Notes: generated by a model not told the origin, from the letters alone. DNA of 64,000 bases from a bacterium (GCA_030429765.1 JAUIER010000009.1:49941-113940); one strand, 5' to 3'. Shown: positions 3,647 through 13,447, counted from the first letter of the stretch. Translations and numbers: made by a program.

Positions 3647-4600
3647 TTGAAACTCAAAGATATTTACGCGTTATTTGTGAAGGAAGGGATACGGCTTGAT
3701 CCGCGGTCGACAGCCCAGGTTGAGCAGTACCTGAAGGATCAGAAAAAGTCGTATCGCGCCTTAAGCGCGAAAGACAAGAAGTTCTTTGATAGTGAAACAA
3801 TGACCAATCCATACTCGGACACACGTATTTTACATGGTGATCCGAATCGGGAGATCCGGCGCATTCTCGTCGGGATTGATATCGAGCCTGGAGAAATTGC
3901 CATCGCCGATCAGTTGTCGTTGCGGGGTGATGAGATCGATCTGCTGCTCGCGCATCATCCGGAGGGCGTGGCGCTGGCCGGACTGCATGAAGTGATGCAT
4001 ATGCAGACAGATTTTCTTAAGAATGCGGGGATCAAGGATTCAATCGCTGAAAAGCTGATGAAATCCAGGATCGATCAGGTGTCGCGGCGCTTGCACAGCG
4101 CGAACCACACTCGCAGTGTGGATGCCGCCCGATTGCTAGATATCCCGATGATGTGCTGTCATACGCCCGCGGATAATCACGTGAGTACTTATCTGCAGAA
4201 GTTGATGAACGCGAAGAAGCCGCGCACGCTTAAGCATATTGTGGATTTGCTGATGAAAGAACCCGAGTACCGGGACGCTGTTCTGAACAAAGCCGGTCCG
4301 GAGATTCTGGTCGGAAAAGCGAAGGATTTGGCCGGCAAAGTTTACGTGGATATGACCGGCGGGACAGAAGGATCGGATAAGATTTTCGCACGGATGTCAC
4401 AATTGGGAATCGATACACTTTTGGGAATGCATTACTCAGAGGCTCATTACAAAAATATCAAGGCCGAAGGCATTAACGTGGTCAATGCCGGACACATGGC
4501 CAGTGATAATCTCGGAATGAACCTGCTGTTGGATAAATTGACGCGAAAAGCGGATGTTGAAATCGTCGAATGCTCAGGCTTCAAGAGGTTTGAACGTTAA
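3647..4600 (+). CDS. NIF3/YqfO family metal-binding protein (GTP cyclohydrolase 1 type 2 homolog)
   Basis: It carries the DLLLAHHPEG motif and a C-terminal GMHYSEAHY motif. Its position directly upstream of dnaG-rpoD matches Bacillus yqfO synteny. Confidence 0.55.
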   Translation: MKLKDIYALFVKEGIRLDPRSTAQVEQYLKDQKKSYRALSAKDKKFFDSETMTNPYSDTRILHGDPNREIRRILVGIDIEPGEIAIADQLSLRGDEIDLLLAHHPEGVALAGLHEVMHMQTDFLKNAGIKDSIAEKLMKSRIDQVSRRLHSANHTRSVDAARLLDIPMMCCHTPADNHVSTYLQKLMNAKKPRTLKHIVDLLMKEPEYRDAVLNKAGPEILVGKAKDLAGKVYVDMTGGTEGSDKIFARMSQLGIDTLLGMHYSEAHYKNIKAEGINVVNAGHMASDNLGMNLLLDKLTRKADVEIVECSGFKRFER

Positions 4601-6369
4601 TGCCGTTAATCCCTGAAGAAATTATCTCTCAGATCATTGATCAGACGGATATTGTCGACACCATTTCAGGTTACGTTACGCTCAAGAAGGCCGGACGTAA
4701 CTTTAAGGGGTTGTCTCCGTTTAATCATGAGAAGACACCGTCATTTGTTGTCAGTCCGGATAAGCAGATATTTCACTGCTACAGCAGCGGTATCGGCGGC
4801 AATGTAATTTCGTTTATCATGAAGGTCGAACGTCTGACCTTTCCGGAAGCCGCGCGGTTCCTGGCCAAACGGATTAACATCGAAATCCCGGAGAACACCG
4901 GCGGCTCGCCGTATCAACGGGGACAGCGTGAAGAAATTTTCGATGTGAACGCGCTGGCCATGAAATATTTTACCGACATATTGGTGTCGGGTGCTGACCG
5001 AGAATGCGCAGTCAGTCGGGATTATCTCAAATCGCGGGGGATTACGCTGGAGACGGTCAAAACGTTTCAGCTAGGGCTTTCCCGCAATGAATGGGACGGT
5101 CTCATCCGATTTTTGAAATCGAAAAATGTCCCGTTGCGTACGATGGAAAAGGCCGGATTAATCGTCGCTCGTGACAACAAGGAAGGTTATTACGACCGCT
5201 TTCGTAACCGGATTATGTTTCCGATTCAGGACACCCAAGGCCGGGTTCGGGCGTTCGGAGCGCGCAGTCTCGACGACGGCGGAGCTAAGTATATCAATTC
5301 TCCCGAGACAGCGGTTTATACCAAGGGAGAACACCTGTACGGATTGCACTTGGCCAAGCAGGCGGTGATCCAGAAAGATTTTGTCGTTATCGTTGAGGGG
5401 TACATGGATTGCATTATGCCTCAGCAGGCGGGTTTCATGAACATTGTCGCGTCACTTGGAACCGCGCTGACGACGCAGCAAATAAGAAATATCCGACGAT
5501 TTACTCCGAATGTCGTTATGCTTTACGATAACGATAAGGCTGGAGAGGCCGCCATGATGCGCAGTTTTGATGTGCTGATTGAAGAAGGTATCAGCGTCAA
5601 GGTGGCGAGCCTGGAAGCTGGTGAGGACCCGGATTCATACATCAGGAAGCACGGGATCGCCCGCTTTGAAGGACAAATAGAACGGTCCAGAGATTTGTTT
5701 GAGTACAAGCTTGATCGATTGTGTGAGCGTTATGATCCGCGATCGGTAAGCGGTCAAGCCAAGATCTGTGATGATATTTTGCCGACGATTAATCGTTTTC
5801 CGCATGCGGTGATGCAGGCGGGCTATGTTAATCGATTGGCGGCCAAGCTCGGCGTGTCCGAGCGGGCATTGAACGTTGAACTTCAAAAGGTACGTGAAGG
5901 CATGCGCCAACCGGCACGAGAGGCGGTCGTCGAGACCAAGCCGAAGATAAGCATTTCACGTCCTGTTGAAAGCAGCTTATTGAAATTATTGCTTGAAGAG
6001 AAAGATTATATCCAGCCGACGAAGCAGGAAATCGCGCTGGATGATTTTCAGGATAAAACCATCCGTTGTGTCGTGTCCAAGCTTTTTGAGCTTGTCGACC
6101 AAGGGGTGGAATTTGGTACCACAGATTTACTCAGCAGTTTTGACGATCAGGATGCCGTGCAGCTCATATCCCGGTTGTCGACGGACGATCAACTTATCGC
6201 CGGAGATAAACAAAAAATCCATCAGGATTGTCTGAGCCGGATCAAAAAGGATCGACTGAAGAATCAACGTAAGGAATTGCTGGAACAGATTAAATCGGCC
6301 GAGCAAGCCGGTGATCAAACTCGACTGGAAGAATTGCGGCAGCAGTTTTTACAGTCCACCAAAAATTGA
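4600..6369 (+). CDS. dnaG: DNA primase DnaG
   Basis: The N-terminus is zinc-finger-like (EKTPSF) but has lost Cys ligands. The TOPRIM motifs VIVEGYMD and MLYDNDKAGE are intact. Confidence 0.9.
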   Translation: MPLIPEEIISQIIDQTDIVDTISGYVTLKKAGRNFKGLSPFNHEKTPSFVVSPDKQIFHCYSSGIGGNVISFIMKVERLTFPEAARFLAKRINIEIPENTGGSPYQRGQREEIFDVNALAMKYFTDILVSGADRECAVSRDYLKSRGITLETVKTFQLGLSRNEWDGLIRFLKSKNVPLRTMEKAGLIVARDNKEGYYDRFRNRIMFPIQDTQGRVRAFGARSLDDGGAKYINSPETAVYTKGEHLYGLHLAKQAVIQKDFVVIVEGYMDCIMPQQAGFMNIVASLGTALTTQQIRNIRRFTPNVVMLYDNDKAGEAAMMRSFDVLIEEGISVKVASLEAGEDPDSYIRKHGIARFEGQIERSRDLFEYKLDRLCERYDPRSVSGQAKICDDILPTINRFPHAVMQAGYVNRLAAKLGVSERALNVELQKVREGMRQPAREAVVETKPKISISRPVESSLLKLLLEEKDYIQPTKQEIALDDFQDKTIRCVVSKLFELVDQGVEFGTTDLLSSFDDQDAVQLISRLSTDDQLIAGDKQKIHQDCLSRIKKDRLKNQRKELLEQIKSAEQAGDQTRLEELRQQFLQSTKN

Positions 6370-6390: not shown

Positions 6391-7986
6391 ATGAAAAAGC
6401 AGAAAGCGAAAGACGATATCCAAGCCGATATCGAAAAATTGGTGGCTTTAGGCAAGAAAAAAGGATTCTTGACCTACGACGAAGTCAACAATGCTTTATC
6501 TGAAACAGTGGAATCATCGGAAGAAATTGATAAAGTTTTCGATATCTTGGACGGAAAAGATATAAAGATCATTGAGTCCGACGAAGGGGAAGAGGAGTCC
6601 AAAAAGGAAGATTTGGATAAAGAATCCCGTGAGCAGGAAGTGCGTCGCGTCCGTGAAGAAAGCAAGGAAGACGAAGTCTATTCAGACAAGTTTATTCCTC
6701 TGGATGATCCGGTGAAGATGTATCTCAAACAGATGGGCTCTATCCCTCTGTTATCTCGCGAAAACGAGATTAATTTGGCCAAGCGGATCGAAGAGGCGGA
6801 ACATAAATTTGCCGAAGCGCTGTATAAGACGGCATACGCCCGGAAGCGCGCGCTGGAAACGATCAAGAATGTGCTTAATGAAGAGATCAACGTGGAAGAC
6901 GTTATCAAGGATGAACTTGATCGTCGACCTAAATTGATCCGCGACCTCAAGCGGATTCGCGCGAGTGTTACACGAACGCGGGTTGGATCGGATAAATCTG
7001 CCGCGTTATTGGCTGAGTTTAAGTTGACCGCCGCGTACAATGAAAAGGTTATGGCTGAGATCATTGATCTGGTTTCAAAGATTGAAAGGATAGAGCGGAA
7101 GCTGAACAGTAAACGCAAGATACCCGGTGTGACGCAAATGCGGAAAGATAAGTCAGCCCTCCTCAAAGAGCTGGCCCAGCCGGTCAAAAAGGTCAAGGAG
7201 CAGCTTCGGGTTATCAAGATCCGAGAATCCAAGTTCAACAAGGCCAAAAAGCTTCTTGTTGAGGCCAATCTCCGTTTGGTGGTTAGTATCGCCAAAAAAT
7301 ACATCAACCGTGGATTGTCGTTTCTGGATCTGATCCAGGAAGGCAATATGGGATTGATCCGGGCCGTAGAGAAGTTCGAATACAAACGTGGGTATAAATT
7401 TTCGACCTACGCCACATGGTGGATCCGACAGGCTATCACCCGGTCTATTGCTGACCAGGCCCGTACAATCCGCATCCCGGTTCACATGACCGAGACGATC
7501 AATAAAATTATCCGTGTGTCACGTCTGTTCGTGCAGGAATACGGGCGCGAACCAACGGCGCAGGAAATTGCCAAGCAGATGCGAATTCCGATCGGCAAAG
7601 TGAAGGAAATCCTCAAGATTTCTCAGGTGCCGATCTCACTGCAAACGCCGATTGGAGACGAAGGGGATACACACTTTGGTGATTTCATCGAGGACAAAAA
7701 GGCGGTATCGCCGGCCAACGCCACACTGCAGTCGATGCTGAAGGATGAGATCACATCTGTCCTTAACACACTGGATGAGCGTGAGCGTAAGATCCTGGAA
7801 TTGCGTTTCGGGATTCATGATGGAACAACGCGAACCCTCGAGGAAGTGGGGAGCGAGTTTAACGTCACCCGTGAGCGGGTTCGGCAGATCGAATCCAAGG
7901 CGTTGCGTAAACTTCGTCATCCAACCCGTTCCAGACGGGTCAAACAGTTCCTGGATATGGCGTCCAAAGAAGACGCGATTATCTAA
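6391..7986 (+). CDS. rpoD: RNA polymerase primary sigma factor RpoD (sigma-70)
   Basis: Region 2 reads [19 protein letters not shown] and [13 protein letters not shown]. Regions 3 and 4 are present, as is an acidic region 1. Confidence 0.95.
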
Positions 7987-8897: not shown

Positions 8898-9111
8898 GGC
8901 TCCGACTTGGACTCATTTGTCCTGAACGTGGTTTTTTCAAATGATCAGCCGCGGTGAAATTCTGTAAACTATTCCATATCAAATATTTACCAAATGTAAA
9001 TTTTGGGTGACATACCCAAAAAAGATGGAGATTCGTGCTTCATTCAGATATAATTATAGGGTAAGTACAATTCCCCAATTGCCTTTCTTTAGTTTTGATT
9101 CCAATTAAATT

Positions 9112-11508
9112 ATGAGATTTTGTTTTGCGACAAATAAGTGTATATTCGCCGTGGCCGCGCTGTTGATTGTCTTTGCTTTTTGTGATCGGACATCAGTGTA
9201 TGCACAGCGGTCCACGCCCGGGCAACCAGACTTAATTGAGCTTACCGATGATTATCGGCCTGCCCTGATTAAAGGGGTTCGGGTTGATCCCGATAATGCC
9301 CTTGCGTTTCAATTTATTATTGATCCAGGGGGCACCTCGTTTCAGGATGAAGCCTTCCAACGTCAAGCGACAAAGTTAATTAAATACTTTCTCACCGCGT
9401 TAACTATTCCCGAAGATGAACTATGGGTCAATCTGTCACCGTATGAATCGCATCGGATTATTCCCGATCGTTTTGGTCAAACGGAGATGGGGCGTGATTT
9501 GCTGGAGTTGGATTATCAGCTCAAGCAGCTGACCTCCTCAATGATGTATCCCGAAACCCCGATCGGTCAGTCATTTTGGCAGCGTGTGTATCAACGCGCG
9601 CAATCGCTTCACGGTTCCACGGAGATTCCGATGAATACTTATAACAAGATCTGGATAATTCCGGAGTCCGCGCAGGTCTACGAAGATGAGCTCGGAGCGT
9701 TTGTAGTTGACAGCCATTTGCAGGTAATGCTCGAAGAGGATTATTTGGCATTACAGCATCACACGGCTGAGTCGGCGAAGGCCGCGGATGATGTCATCAG
9801 TGGAGTCTCGTCCAAAATTGTGCGTGAGGTATTGATCCCGGAGATTGAACATGAGGTCAACAACGGCAAGATCTTTGCTGAATTACGGCAGATGTACAGC
9901 GCGCTGGTGCTGGCGGCTTGGTACAAGCAGTCCGTAACATCGGGGCTTCTGGATAAATCCTATGTCGACCAGGGTAAAGTTCAGGGAGTGCACATACAAA
10001 AAGAGGGAGTACGGGAGGAAATCTATCAGCGTTATGTTATGGCCTTCAGGAAAGGGGTTTATGATTATATCCGTGAGGATGTTGATCTTCAGACCGGACA
10101 GTTAATCCCGCGCAGATATTTCTCCGGCGGCGTTGAGCTCAGCGCTGAGCGCCAACGAGTGGACCTGTCTACGCTAGCGAAGGAGTTAGGCGGCACAGAG
10201 GCAAGTCTGATTCGGGTGTCGGCGGATCTGGAGGCGATTACGAATAGCGCCTCTAAAATCGACCGGGCGCAGTTAGGTCAGCATACGGCAGACCTGTTGT
10301 TATATCGGGAGTTAATGCTGTTGCGAGATCAAAATCTGCCGTTCCGTCCCGAAGATTTCCGAGGGACGGGCACTGAACTTGAACGTCTTCCCGCCCGGTT
10401 ACTGGAAAAGGCCATTGATATCATGAAAAACCATCACATCGGTCAGTTTCGCGCGGATGGGACCACCGAGTACATTACGCATCCATTGGGGGTTGCCGCG
10501 ATTTACCTGAACGAACTGGGTATTAATGATCCCGAAGTCTTCATGGCCCTCTTGTTTCACGATGTCATCGAAAACAGTATCACCTATTATACAGACTTGC
10601 CAATCAACAAGATTACCGAGGAGGAGGCGATTGAGCTCAGGAAACGTCGTCCCAAGATTTCGCGCAGCGCCCGGGATCTGCATCGGGTGACCAAGCTTGT
10701 CATGGACGAGTTGGTGGCGGCTGGTGTCGACCGTCAAGGGCTGGATCTTGATCGTGTCTTTAGTCTTGTTAACGCGCTCAGTAAGCACAATGAACGGGAT
10801 ATCCACAAGCACTATCTGCCTGGTCTGGTCGATCAGGGTAGTGATGGGGTGCTGGCGAAGTTGATGGACCAAATCCATAATATCCGTACCAATATTTTTG
10901 CCACCGATGCGTCATTTGTGGAGAAGTACGTGTTTGGCGATGGACATAAACGAACGGGCAGTATTTACATTTATCTGGAGGCCCCGGTGGGAACAACAGG
11001 TAAGCCGTTTGTTGATCATCTTAATGAAGACCATCGGCATGTGAAAACGCTCTACCAAATCGCCTTGTTCAAGACCATTGAAGGGAATCTTGAACGTTTA
11101 ACACGGATCCATACAATCCGCGATGTGCTCGCGGTGATTCATCGGATTGCGCCGGATCTGACAATGGACCTGCATTATCATTCCAGGGAGCATGCGCTCG
11201 AGGAGGCCATTGCCCAGATGCAGCAACGGTTTGATCAGCAGGTCGCCGCCATTGACGCGGCGATGATCAGCGACTTTACCAAGGGTGGAATTGATCTGAA
11301 TCAGGCGCATTTAAAGCTGGAGGTCGCCGGCGAGCGGCGGATTCAAATCCAGTCACCGGAGTCCTGGACGGAGGAATCCGTAGAGATAGAAGGGTTTGTT
11401 CCGGTTATCCAGGAAGTCGTTCCGATGATCGATCCGCTTGAAACGCTGGGTTTGGGAGATAGTGCCCTAAAGGCGGACAGTCTGGCGTATGAAATGTCAG
11501 ATGATTAG
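9112..11508 (+). CDS. Large protein with N-terminal signal/anchor and a RelA/SpoT-type HD (ppGpp hydrolase-like) domain
   Basis: The N-terminal hydrophobic segment is MRFCFATNKCIFAVAALLIVFAF. The HD motif is HHIGQFRADGTTEYITHPLGVAAIYL...ALLFHDVIENS. Confidence 0.6.
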   Translation: MRFCFATNKCIFAVAALLIVFAFCDRTSVYAQRSTPGQPDLIELTDDYRPALIKGVRVDPDNALAFQFIIDPGGTSFQDEAFQRQATKLIKYFLTALTIPEDELWVNLSPYESHRIIPDRFGQTEMGRDLLELDYQLKQLTSSMMYPETPIGQSFWQRVYQRAQSLHGSTEIPMNTYNKIWIIPESAQVYEDELGAFVVDSHLQVMLEEDYLALQHHTAESAKAADDVISGVSSKIVREVLIPEIEHEVNNGKIFAELRQMYSALVLAAWYKQSVTSGLLDKSYVDQGKVQGVHIQKEGVREEIYQRYVMAFRKGVYDYIREDVDLQTGQLIPRRYFSGGVELSAERQRVDLSTLAKELGGTEASLIRVSADLEAITNSASKIDRAQLGQHTADLLLYRELMLLRDQNLPFRPEDFRGTGTELERLPARLLEKAIDIMKNHHIGQFRADGTTEYITHPLGVAAIYLNELGINDPEVFMALLFHDVIENSITYYTDLPINKITEEEAIELRKRRPKISRSARDLHRVTKLVMDELVAAGVDRQGLDLDRVFSLVNALSKHNERDIHKHYLPGLVDQGSDGVLAKLMDQIHNIRTNIFATDASFVEKYVFGDGHKRTGSIYIYLEAPVGTTGKPFVDHLNEDHRHVKTLYQIALFKTIEGNLERLTRIHTIRDVLAVIHRIAPDLTMDLHYHSREHALEEAIAQMQQRFDQQVAAIDAAMISDFTKGGIDLNQAHLKLEVAGERRIQIQSPESWTEESVEIEGFVPVIQEVVPMIDPLETLGLGDSALKADSLAYEMSDD

Positions 11509-11738: not shown

Positions 11739-11812
11739 GGGCCTTTAGCTCAGTCGGTTAGAGCAGTTCACTCATAATGAATTGGTCCCAGGTTCGAGTC
11801 CTGGAAGGCCCA
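11739..11812 (+). tRNA. tRNA-Met (anticodon CAT), elongator-type, possibly tRNA-Ile2 (lysidine)
   Basis: The 74-nt sequence folds as a cloverleaf: acceptor GGGCCTT/AAGGCCC, D-arm GCTC..GAGC, anticodon loop CTCATAA, T-arm CCAGG-TTCGAGT-CCTGG, discriminator A. It has no initiator hallmarks. Confidence 0.85.
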
Positions 11813-11855: not shown

Positions 11856-12578
11856 GTGGAGACTTCGGTAAAGGATCAAATAAAAAAACTAGTCGAAATA
11901 CAAAAGTTGGATGGTGAAATCTATGATCTCAACAAAGAGATCAAGGAAAAACCGCTGCTGATTGATGAGCTCAAGGAACAGTTCGAAACCACCAAGGCTC
12001 ATCTTAATCAATTGGAAGCTGAAGCCAAAGCGGTCCTGGTTGCCCGTAAAGATTTTGAACTGGAGCTTCAATCCAAAGAGGATGCCATCGCCAAGTCCAA
12101 TGCAGATTTGTCGCAGATCAAGACCAACAAGGAGTATACGGCCAAGGTCAACGAGATCGAAAGTATAAAAGCCGATAAGTCTCAAACCGAAGAAAAAATT
12201 CTCAAGTCATACGATCAGGTCGATAAAATCAATGTCGATATAGATAAAGAAAAAGTCGTTGTCGGTGAGCGTGAAAAGGAATACTTAAGTAAGAAAAAGG
12301 AAATTGAAGACGAGATTAAGGTTCTACAGGATCGTGTTCAAGTTCTCGACGGACAGCGAAAGCAAATTGCCCCGGATATCGATCCGCCGTTACTAGCTCA
12401 ATATGAAAAGCTGCTGCAGCACAAAGAGGGGCGCGCGATTGTGGCGGTACACGGAACGTCATGCGGTGGATGCTACATGAATGTCATGCAGCAAAGTCTT
12501 AATCTGATCAAGATGCACACGGAAGTGGTCCGTTGCGATTATTGTTCGCGGATGCTCTACATCGAGGATGATCTTTGA
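11856..12578 (+). CDS. Coiled-coil protein with C-terminal C4 zinc ribbon (COG1579 family)
   Basis: The start codon is GTG with an AAGGA RBS. A long coiled coil precedes CGGCYMNV....CDYCSRMLY. Confidence 0.75.
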   Translation: METSVKDQIKKLVEIQKLDGEIYDLNKEIKEKPLLIDELKEQFETTKAHLNQLEAEAKAVLVARKDFELELQSKEDAIAKSNADLSQIKTNKEYTAKVNEIESIKADKSQTEEKILKSYDQVDKINVDIDKEKVVVGEREKEYLSKKKEIEDEIKVLQDRVQVLDGQRKQIAPDIDPPLLAQYEKLLQHKEGRAIVAVHGTSCGGCYMNVMQQSLNLIKMHTEVVRCDYCSRMLYIEDDL

Positions 12579-13042
12579 GTTTAAAGTCGTTGGTGATCAA
12601 TGTCGACGGTGCGTGCAGTGGCAATCCGGGAGAGGCCGGGATTGGCGTTGTGGTCCGTCAGGACGATAAGATCATTAAAGAGATATCGCAGCCAATTGGC
12701 GTGGCGACGAATAATATCGCTGAATATACCGCGCTGATTTACGGATTGCAGGAAGGGTTGATCCAGCGGGCAGATGAAGTTTATGTGATCACCGATAGCG
12801 AATTGGTATTCAATCAAATAGCGGGCAATTATAAGGTCAAGAATGAAAAAATCAAACCGCTATTTGATCAGGTAAAGCATTTAGTTCAAGGGTTTAAGTC
12901 GTTTAAAATAGAGCATGTTCTGCGTGGAAAGAACCAGGACGCGGATCGGCTTGCAACACAATCCATAGCTAAAAAACAGACCAAGATGGTTGCCTCGTTG
13001 TTTGATAACAACGAGGAGGAAAGTCCGAGCTCCACAGGATAG
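12575..13042 (+). CDS. rnhA: Ribonuclease HI
   Basis: The N-terminus LVINVDGACSGNPGEAGIGVV is RNase H-like. The start is TTG overlapping the upstream stop. The last ~23 codons overlap rnpB. Confidence 0.8.
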   Translation: MSLKSLVINVDGACSGNPGEAGIGVVVRQDDKIIKEISQPIGVATNNIAEYTALIYGLQEGLIQRADEVYVITDSELVFNQIAGNYKVKNEKIKPLFDQVKHLVQGFKSFKIEHVLRGKNQDADRLATQSIAKKQTKMVASLFDNNEEESPSSTG

Positions 13043-13352
13043 TATACCCTGGTAACGCAGGGCCTTACCGGTTTGCTTCGCATGCCGGTATGAGGATTAG
13101 AGCCACAGTGACGAATAAGGCGAATTTGTCTCTGACAAATCCGCTATAGTGAAACGAGCAATCTCTATACGGAGCAATGCCAAATAGGTGAAGATTTAAC
13201 TTCGGTTAAGACGAATTGATCCGGTTCGTTGATTCACGGGTAGGCTGCAAGAGTTTAAGAAGTGATTCTTAAAGTGAGTTGAATAACCATCGAGCCAGAT
13301 TGATTGTTATGATCGGGCTGGCTTCACAGAACTCGGCTTATACAGTCTGTTT
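12973..13352 (+). ncRNA. rnpB: RNase P RNA (bacterial type A)
   Basis: The P4 5' strand GAGGAAAGTCCGAGCTCC is present. The 3' strand ACAGAACTCGGCTTA shows a compensatory CCGAG/CTCGG pairing. GGTAACGC and GGGTAGGCTGC are conserved. A P3 hairpin CCTCGTTGT..ACAACGAGG is present. P1 pairs AACAGAC with GTCTGTT. Confidence 0.88.
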
Positions 13353-13447
13353 AATTATAGAATTGAACGGTGGATTATTGCGAAACAGTCAGTAAATCCG
13401 TCGGCAAGACTTCAACAAATAAGCATTTCAAAAATGGAGGAGATGTA

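Follow-up and report, generated by a model that had tools for sequence, protein, structure and literature searches.

The 64-kb stretch of bacterial DNA analysed here (GCA_030429765.1 JAUIER010000009.1:49941-113940; hereafter the window, positions 1-64000) contains, on the + strand, an open reading frame (ORF) with an ATG start that spans positions 9112-11508 and codes for a protein of 798 amino acids (aa), exactly as given in a first-pass annotation made from the sequence alone. That annotation had described the product as an atypical secreted or membrane-tethered enzyme, resembling a small alarmone hydrolase (SAH) and provided with large extra domains. The protein is organized as a signal peptide, a conserved N-terminal module (N-module), a flexible linker, a variable segment (the cargo, here an HD hydrolase-type domain), a conserved C-terminal motif (C-motif) and a short tail (Table 1). 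The signal peptide, the N-module and the C-motif form a bracket that was found, enclosing very different cargoes, in a large protein family encoded almost only in metagenome-assembled genomes (MAGs) of Omnitrophota. The novelty lies in this Omnitrophota-wide bracket rather than in the hydrolase domain. The protein encoded by the window, the query, has all three parts of the bracket and is nearly devoid of cysteine, and there is little doubt about its architecture and its membership of the family. The complete reading that is preferred here, namely that the query is a single-cargo member of this bracketed Omnitrophota family that is exported and acts outside the producer cell, is offered tentatively.

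A search with the whole protein returned more than 2,400 clusters, a lower bound, which matched only the N-terminal 37-55% of the query (43-57% identity, or about 50% for the N-module; 44-57% in 119 listed relatives); the rest of these proteins consisted of mutually unrelated sequence. An alignment of 100 sequences showed 37 invariant columns in the N-module, whose motifs include WVNLSPYE, TEMGRDLLxxDYxLKQ, NKIWI, EEDY, EVNxGxxFAxLRQ, WYK and RKYFSGG. In the AlphaFold2 (AF2) model of the full-length protein, the N-module appeared as a mixed alpha/beta domain with three beta-hairpins, with predicted local distance difference test (pLDDT) values mostly of 80-97. No Pfam or NCBIfam model matched it, a Pfam analysis of 26 N-modules gave noise only, and so did a profile of 26 N-module sequences run against the PDB sequences (E 1.4). 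Foldseek searches of PDB and BFVD, in which the query structure was the full-length model including the disordered cargo, returned nothing below E 0.2 (PDB) or 0.015 (BFVD), all matches being of low probability. Local hidden Markov models detected the N-module in all 120 listed relatives of the query.

The C-motif was first noticed on comparing eight relatives; its consensus is GGID(L/F)NP..L.LQI...G.....GFxPVIINI.P..NLP.LLG. In the query it ends 15 aa from the C-terminus, and its pLDDT in the full-length model was 70-95. The region aa 720-798 matched no NCBIfam or Pfam model at E values up to 1, and contains no C-terminal hydrophobic segment. Exactly one C-motif was present in 97 of the 120 listed relatives, at a median distance of 20 aa from the C-terminus (the tails beyond the motif measure 1-78 aa in the family). 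It was absent from the remainder, and since many of these are short or encoded on short contigs, they were taken to be truncated proteins. The inspection of 80 genomic loci showed the two elements to be tightly coupled: of the 63 N-module ORFs whose 3′ end was intact, 56 had the C-motif, and of the 61 ORFs containing a C-motif, 59 had the N-module. The exceptions were ORFs broken by runs of N or with visibly degenerate motifs. A search with a C-motif profile retrieved only fragments of 52-114 aa, mostly from short contigs (the one inspected adjoins a contig end), and so did not bear on the existence of C-motifs in the absence of an N-module.

The segment between the N-module and the C-motif measured 200-955 aa in the listed relatives. 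Complete members found in the 80 loci were ∼650 to 2,400 aa long, and one protein of 4,465 aa (P0367) carries the bracket at both ends. No cargo-less member was present among 59 complete members, the shortest being ∼650 aa in length, and the direct junction KYFSGGID(L/F)N was not found in the scanned metagenome contigs. Since the N-module ends in ...SGG and the C-motif begins with GGID, the cargo looks like an insertion at a single GG junction, and the sequences suggest that the N-module and the C-motif may once have been a single domain. In the query, the N-module ends in RRYFSGG (10111-10131) and the C-motif begins with (K)GGIDLN (11278-11301).

The inspection of 44 members identified 35 Pfam families in the cargo, in agreement with precomputed Pfam annotations; many members had no Pfam match at all. 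The families included hexokinase, PGK, GAPDH, UDP-glucose pyrophosphorylase, ROK kinase, guanylate kinase and GHMP kinase; response-regulator receiver, HATPase_c, DnaJ, M3, M20 and S8 peptidases and HEAT repeats; and alanine dehydrogenase, aldo-keto reductase, methyltransferases, radical SAM, NUDIX, macro, DRAT and metallophosphatase domains. Within the cargo of one relative, P0002, a segment at aa ∼440-470 (SRRNFLKAAGGLLFLSFLESC) resembles both a twin-arginine signal and a lipobox, which gives the impression that the bracket has taken up an entire lipoprotein precursor. Two short motifs were enriched at module borders in the linkers of P0002-P0120: [DN]x[AS][MIQ][LMIVT] was observed 91 times, versus 38 in shuffled sequences, and SSP[VLIMA] 80 times, versus 3.4. 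The query has a motif of the first class at both borders of its cargo (Table 1). That these border motifs are processing or modification sites is speculation.

The N-terminal hydrophobic segment pointed out in the first-pass annotation is real. Its n-, h- and c-region organization is maintained over 100 homologues, as is a cleavage site of the form (A/V/S)-x-A↓Q. Mean counts in the n-region of 109 homologues are 3.6 for K/R and 0.3 for D/E, and the h-region comprises 15 residues with a mean Kyte-Doolittle value of 2.3. The alignment of 100 sequences showed Ala (91%), Gly (6%) or Ser (1%) at position -1, A/V/S/G/T at position -3 in 77 sequences, Gln at position +1 in 89, and a conserved Pro-Pro at the h/c boundary. 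The site in the query is SVYA↓Q, which predicts a mature protein starting at Q32. By its sequence, the c-region is a classic site for signal peptidase I, and heuristic sequence analysis recognized the charged n-region, the h-region and the small residues at -3 and -1 that characterize Sec/signal peptidase I substrates. The query contains a single hydrophobic segment (19-residue Kyte-Doolittle maximum of 2.1 at aa 3-21), with no second one detected on the Kyte-Doolittle scale. A lipoprotein was rejected because there is no lipobox; the residue at -1 to C24 is Phe.

The query has only three cysteines (aa 4, 10 and 24), all of them inside the signal peptide. In the bracket family, cysteine content was 0.01% in the N-modules and 0.056% in the cargo. 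The corresponding figures for the controls were 1.38% (non-family ORFs that adjoin the family genes in those loci) and 1.19% (the other ORFs of the window). The mature protein lacked cysteine altogether in 70 of 97 family members, and some of the leftover cysteines occur where chemistry demands them, as in the SCTTN active site of the GAPDH cargo of P0044. Cysteine depletion is typical of autotransporter passengers, RTX proteins and S-layer proteins, which cross the outer membrane unfolded or live outside the cell. In the bracket family, this sequence bias points to a fate outside the cytoplasm, and is hard to reconcile with a cytoplasmic location. These data bear on an alternative in which the N-terminal helix is not cleaved and serves as an inner-membrane signal-anchor, the bulk of the protein remaining in the cytoplasm, where the HD domain would degrade the cell's own alarmones at the membrane. 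Such a topology would give the cargo enzymes access to the cytoplasmic cofactors that they need, and a 2026 preprint on complete Omnitrophota genomes weighs an inner-membrane-anchored, cytoplasm-facing reading for those giant proteins of the phylum that have transmembrane helices only (10.64898/2026.06.07.730766). The charge distribution argues otherwise, since the positive-inside rule sets the K/R-rich n-region in the cytoplasm and the remainder outside. A conserved A-x-A↓Q site with a Pro-Pro breaker is likewise at odds with an uncleaved anchor, and a cytoplasmic location leaves the 20- to 100-fold cysteine depletion of the mature parts unexplained. For these three reasons, a cytoplasm-facing anchor is considered improbable.

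The main rival of export to act elsewhere is a surface scaffold or display system, in which the bracket would anchor or polymerize proteins on the producer's own envelope as an enzyme-decorated layer. The C-motif could dock on the N-module of the next subunit, or both could form a split domain with the cargo in a loop; the HD domain would then act on extracellular nucleotides or as a binding module. The near-obligate co-occurrence of N-module and C-motif agrees with this, as do the way in which one ends in ...RKYFSGG and the other starts with GGIDLN, as if cargo had been inserted at one junction, and the pLDDT of the C-motif, which reaches 95 in the full-length model. S-layer proteins are typically cysteine-free, acidic and made with a signal peptide, and the mature proteins described here are cysteine-free and acidic (pI 5.1 for the query) and have a signal peptide. 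In addition, the preprint mentioned above places the multi-enzyme content of giant Omnitrophota proteins on the periplasmic or extracellular face (10.64898/2026.06.07.730766). A scaffold would nevertheless leave ATP-, S-adenosylmethionine (SAM)- and NAD-dependent cargo without cofactors outside the cell, and both the lack of cargo-less members in the sample and that of direct junctions in the metagenome contigs speak against it. This explanation is regarded as unlikely, if less so than the membrane anchor.

The cargo of the query spans just about aa 425-720 and is, to judge from sequence profiles and a structural model, a divergent HD hydrolase domain of the RelA/SpoT homologue (RSH) superfamily. 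The HD stretch quoted in the first-pass annotation was placed at aa 441-489, and the His-Asp metal dyad proposed there was confirmed as part of an H..HD..D set (H457, H483, D484 and D586) located at invariant or near-invariant columns of an alignment of the subfamily with SAHs. The RSH motif residues R447, E487, K583, D586 and N590 are also kept (within HHIGQFRADG..YITHP and KLMDQIHNIR), KLMDQIHNIR matching the RSH motif K-L-A-D-R-x-x-N-x-R, whereas the ED diad that follows HD is changed to E487-N488. An exhaustive phmmer search with aa 401-722 against 1.84 billion representatives yielded 525 relatives, including an identical protein (P0001, E 1.5e-209). The strong relatives (E 1e-30 to 1e-11) were internal segments of ∼280 aa from large multidomain proteins, while weaker ones were proteins of 140-230 aa resembling SAHs. 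A word-indexed search with aa 395-722 did not recover even the identical P0001, and its negatives were therefore not taken as absence. The subfamily alignment revealed an insertion of ∼55 aa directly after the HDxxE(D/N) motif, and the helical extension that follows the HD core (helices at cargo residues 217-321 of the model) is shared by the nearest homologues of the cargo, with the pattern YxFG...GTIxEF.... Single-sequence scores were low because of this insertion, which splits the domain, and of the ∼110-aa extension: NCBIfam SpoT/RelA models reached ∼30 bits, far under their full-length cut-offs, and the best solved relatives, human MESH1/HDDC3, matched over ∼70 residues with an E of 3.5e-7.

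A profile of the insert-bearing subfamily retrieved 20 matches from the PDB, all of them RSH hydrolases. The best was MESH1 (1.6e-18), and the set included RelA, Rel, SpoT, several SAHs and the (p)ppApp hydrolase Aph1. The AF2 model of aa 401-722 had a pLDDT of 89.3 and a predicted template-modelling (pTM) score of 0.89. When compared with the PDB using Foldseek, ranks 1-17 were all RSH hydrolases, with probabilities of 0.75-1.0 and target-normalized TM scores of 0.30-0.65; the matches of this search included structures of MESH1 with NADPH and with 3′-phosphoadenosine 5′-phosphosulfate (PAPS). Since the motif does not align better to generic HD proteins, the domain was assigned to the RSH hydrolase type, as initially proposed. 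The initial statement that there is no synthetase domain also held, as the Pfam and NCBIfam searches, at E values up to 1, found no RelA_SpoT, TGS or ACT domain. PHROGs gave matches just to generic HD phosphohydrolase families, and the PADLOC models of anti-phage defence matched 0 families at E values up to 0.1.

This type of HD cargo recurs, and its nearest relatives lie within the same bracket family. In P0122 (1,404 aa), the order is N-module, methyltransferase, HD, methyltransferase, C-motif; in P0121/P0367, the HD domain lies ∼700 aa before the C-motif of the 4,465-aa protein mentioned above. Related HD segments are also found in large non-bracket proteins, such as a 3,156-aa Endomicrobium protein. 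Two other non-bracket proteins with the same HD cargo type, P0125 (1,427 aa) and P0129 (1,317 aa), both end in ...VLRSL, possibly the terminal signature of a separate modular family; P0125 contains three near-identical coiled-coil repeats of ∼290 aa. The flanks of ∼400 and ∼300 aa that the first-pass annotation had called unrecognized do exist, but they are not orphan sequences, since aa 36-343 and 722-783 are the conserved modules of a large family. The idea of a dedicated secreted or tethered small-alarmone hydrolase with enzyme-specific regulatory or targeting extensions agrees with the presence of a signal peptide and an RSH-type HD domain, with no synthetase, in a single polypeptide. It fails on the extensions, which form a generic bracket common to thousands of proteins with unrelated cargo, so that the HD domain is best seen as one interchangeable passenger. 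Further, inside this bracket the same HD cargo also occurs beside methyltransferases or within ∼4,000 aa of other cargo. This original interpretation was thus abandoned as highly improbable.

A scan of GTDB, with one genome per species, detected at least 583 loci, 79 of which, from 49 assemblies, were fetched. Thirty-four of these assemblies were labelled Omnitrophota, Omnitrophica or Ca. Aceula (an Omnitrophota genus), and the other 15 ‘uncultured Planctomycetales’ or ‘Planctomycetales bacterium’. Individual MAGs contributed up to 11 copies among the best 80 loci (JBFMEN01 = 11), and 22 loci contained two or three family genes in tandem on the same strand (L011, L013, L016, L019, L022, L027, L029, L033, L041, L043, L047, L050, L056, L057, L073, L075 and L077 are examples). 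A tblastn search found no paralogues in the window, which thus has a single copy of the family. An association with phages was rejected, as only 3 matches were found in 2.9 million viral contigs.

Epibiotic predators and nanobacteria that depend on a host are found among the Omnitrophota (PMC10066038; PMC13153191), and in one case predator RNA was detected within dead prey cells (PMC13153191). According to the preferred reading, the signal peptide, the N-module and the C-motif would constitute a shared export, sorting or delivery chassis, by means of which enzymes that normally reside in the cytoplasm leave that of the producer. The cargo proteins would probably cross unfolded and free of disulfides, which would explain the near-absence of cysteine. 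The cargo would most likely act at or inside the host or prey cell of these host-dependent nanobacteria. The HD domain, of the Mn2+-dependent pyrophosphohydrolase type, would there use (p)ppGpp, (p)ppApp or a related nucleotide, for example NADPH or PAPS, as its substrate and remove the 3′(2′)-pyrophosphate or phosphate, which would blunt the stress signalling or metabolism of the target. Delivery to or into a partner cell is favoured because most cargo needs ATP, SAM or NAD(P), because there are predatory, host-dependent Omnitrophota, and because of the predator RNA observed in dead prey. A bolder version of this proposal is that a phylum-specific chassis, possibly a split domain, moves hundreds of cysteine-purged enzymes of cytoplasmic type (glycolytic kinases, nucleotide-modifying enzymes and, in the query, a pyrophosphohydrolase of the alarmone or NADPH type) into host or prey cells and is a building principle of the giant proteins of the phylum; this is possible, though on balance doubtful.

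Several observations weigh against export and action in a partner cell, and some of them against activity of the HD domain as such. Many cargo types depend on ATP, SAM, NAD or low-potential electrons and would not work in the medium or in the periplasm; this need favours delivery into a cell, without proving it. A role of the N-module in export or delivery is one that we infer entirely. When 505 ORFs from the 80 loci were clustered, no conserved neighbour (secretion system, chaperone or immunity gene) emerged, the sole cluster of note being a generic PAS-sensor present in 8 loci. The query gene itself lies amid housekeeping genes, with rpoD upstream and tRNA-Met, rnhA, rnpB, yebC and ruvC downstream. 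The known prey of one studied Omnitrophota predator is an archaeon, and archaea, to our knowledge, generally lack (p)ppGpp. As for the HD domain, the sole Pfam HD match was HD_4, which scored 21.6 bits versus a gathering cut-off of 27.2, with a match limited to positions 1-64 of a 156-position profile. Moreover, the query has EN (E487-N488) in place of the catalytic ED diad. The equivalent MESH1 substitution, D66K, is reportedly used to make MESH1 catalytically deficient. The 5vxa sequence shows this MESH1 D66K variant.

The E487-N488 diad and the HD_4 score below the gathering cut-off make the activity of the domain uncertain, and the sequence suggests that the HD passenger may be catalytically weakened. 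Taken further, the domain could be a pseudoenzyme, an inactive nucleotide-binding or structural passenger, which would be compatible with any of the localization models. Erosion of the diad is also seen in P0127 (EN) and in P0128 (EA), which has lost the DxxxN motif too. Nevertheless, the four metal ligands plus R447, E487, K583 and N590 are all kept in the query, D to N is a conservative change, and most subfamily members keep ED. An inactive passenger is a rather unlikely outcome, though one to be reckoned with.

The query gene sits in a co-directional run of housekeeping genes (Table 1); the first-pass annotation had correctly placed rpoD and a signal-peptide-like hypothetical gene upstream. 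The latter showed a weak, sub-threshold Arrestin_C-like match (E 0.0056) and, unlike the bracket family, keeps cysteines in its mature part. The promoter candidate found upstream of the ATG in a consensus scan, with 10 of 12 consensus matches, is a pattern match only, with no functional evidence. A hairpin that overlaps the tail is a weak terminator-like structure, with 9 pairs of which just 3 are G-C. The 5′ end of the RNase P RNA overlaps the last 69 nt of the rnhA ORF (12575-13042); this overlap may be real, or the 3′ end of rnhA may have been over-called. Throughout the window, nearly all the ORFs of at least 250 aa are on the + strand and the cumulative GC skew climbs steadily, which is consistent with a single replichore with strong gene co-orientation.

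Table 1. Position in the window of the parts of the bracket protein, of the signals around its gene, and of neighbouring genes
Feature	Position	Strand	Remarks
NIF3-like gene			upstream of ORF 9112-11508
dnaG	4600-6369		upstream of ORF 9112-11508
rpoD	6391-7986		upstream of ORF 9112-11508
Hypothetical gene, 276 aa	8067-8897		signal-peptide-like start; directly upstream
Sigma-70-like promoter candidate	9026..9054	+	TGGAGA-17-TATAAT; ∼58 nt 5′ of the ATG
Predicted Sec-type signal peptide, aa 1-31	9112..9204	+	MRFCFATNK / CIFAVAALLIVFAFC / DRTSVYA↓Q
Cysteine-poor mature region, aa 32-798	9205-11505		
N-module, aa 36-343 (∼310 aa)	9217..10140	+	
Low-confidence linker, aa 344-424	10141..10383	+	pLDDT below 50
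Boundary motif IDRAQLG, aa 383-389	10258-10278	+	N-terminal border of the cargo
RSH/MESH1-type HD hydrolase core, aa 425-608	10384..10935	+	
Helical cargo extension, aa 609-721 (∼110 aa)	10936..11274	+	ends in IDAAMIS
Boundary motif IDAAMIS, aa 714-720	11251-11271	+	C-terminal border of the cargo
C-motif, aa 722-783 (∼60 aa)	11275..11460	+	TKGGIDLN...EGFVPVIQEVVPMIDPLETLGLGD
Short acidic variable tail, aa 784-798, and stop codon	11461..11508	+	
Weak terminator-like hairpin	11480-11502		overlaps the tail
tRNA-Met (CAT)	11739-11812		between ORF 9112-11508 and the Zn-ribbon/CT398-like gene
Zn-ribbon/CT398-like gene, rnhA, RNase P RNA, yebC, ruvC			downstream of tRNA-Met
RNase P RNA (rnpB), class A	12974-13356		159 bits

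Omnitrophota are a widespread group of uncultivated bacteria, most of them ultra-small, and they apparently depend on hosts. The bracket family has thousands of members, is present in several to a dozen or more copies per genome in the sample, keeps a strongly conserved bracket while freely exchanging its cargo, and combines a conserved signal-peptidase site with the near-total removal of cysteine, for which reasons it is likely to be central to the biology of the phylum. The N-module and the C-motif are two new domains, and models of them could serve in genome annotation. The family also makes the export of glycolytic and nucleotide-signalling enzymes testable, as well as the use of an alarmone hydrolase beyond the cytoplasm of the producer, through proteomics and the Velamenicoccus enrichment culture. 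If the bolder proposal were true, the chassis would be a new kind of effector-translocation system, and the query would represent the first secreted RSH hydrolase effector. For RSH biology, the query adds a divergent, insertion-bearing hydrolase subfamily that travels only as a passenger in large proteins predicted to be exported.

Among known enzymes, the cargo shares with MESH1/HDDC3, with SAHs (RelH, PaSAH, TdActApo2) and with Aph1 the metal site, the motifs GQxRxxG..Y..HP and K-L-x-D-x-x-x-N-x-R, and a helical HD fold. It differs from MESH1 and the SAHs in the ∼55-aa insertion, the helical extension, the EN in place of ED and the Pfam score below the cut-off. SAHs stand alone, at 140-230 aa, whereas the HD domain of the query is internal (aa 425-608) to a 798-aa protein with a signal peptide; a stand-alone SAH was thus rejected. 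The hydrolase domain and the helical region that follows it align to residues ∼27-233 of Rel, one of the long RSH proteins (Rel, SpoT, RelA). Unlike these, the query has no SYNTH, TGS, ZFD or ACT domain, is not ribosome-associated and has a signal peptide; membership of the long RSH group was rejected for its lack of synthetase, TGS and ACT domains.

The arrangement of conserved ends around a variable middle is also found in MARTX toxins and in giant adhesins of the LapA type that use type I secretion systems (T1SS). By analogy only, the bracket would resemble them in having terminal modules that serve export, retention or translocation, an exchangeable central array of effector or ligand domains, and short conserved linker motifs that are possibly processing sites. 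The query, however, has no RTX nonapeptide repeats, no cysteine protease domain (CPD) and no sequence or structural similarity to these proteins, and it has a Sec signal peptide, which T1SS substrates lack. A T1SS/RTX protein was thus rejected, given the single GGIDLN, the absence of a repeat array and of any RTX Pfam match, and the Sec-type signal peptide. Polymorphic toxins, including contact-dependent inhibition (CDI) and Rhs systems, similarly combine a conserved trafficking part with a highly variable enzymatic part, but in the bracket family the variable part is internal rather than C-terminal, and the cargo is mostly of housekeeping type and not toxins. A polymorphic toxin-immunity system was rejected because the C-terminus is conserved and the gene is followed by tRNA-Met and then by housekeeping genes; no conserved small downstream ORF that might be an immunity gene was found in the 80 loci. 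Cargo proteins of the type IX secretion system (T9SS) offer a similar parallel, in that an N-terminal signal peptide is paired with a conserved, sorting-like element close to the C-terminus. Sorting of the T9SS C-terminal domain, PEP-CTERM or LPXTG type was rejected, as there was neither a match to a curated model nor a C-terminal hydrophobic segment.

A further parallel comes from the phylum itself. Long and giant proteins of Omnitrophota have been described as having signal peptides and tiled enzyme domains of cytoplasmic type (10.1101/2023.11.21.568195; 10.64898/2026.06.07.730766). Within the literature library searched, no description of the bracket was found in Seymour 2023, West-Roberts 2023 or the 2026 complete-genome preprint. 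The giants and the bracket family have in common the phylum, the signal peptides and a Pfam repertoire that includes methyltransferase, HATPase_c, response regulator, radical SAM, ROK, hexokinase, NUDIX and HEAT. The giants of those papers measure 10,000 aa or more, while the largest bracket member found measures 4,465 aa and the query is a short, single-cargo form. The bracket family thus looks like the short end of the Omnitrophota giant-protein phenomenon, and the bracket is possibly the organizing principle of giant multi-enzyme proteins.

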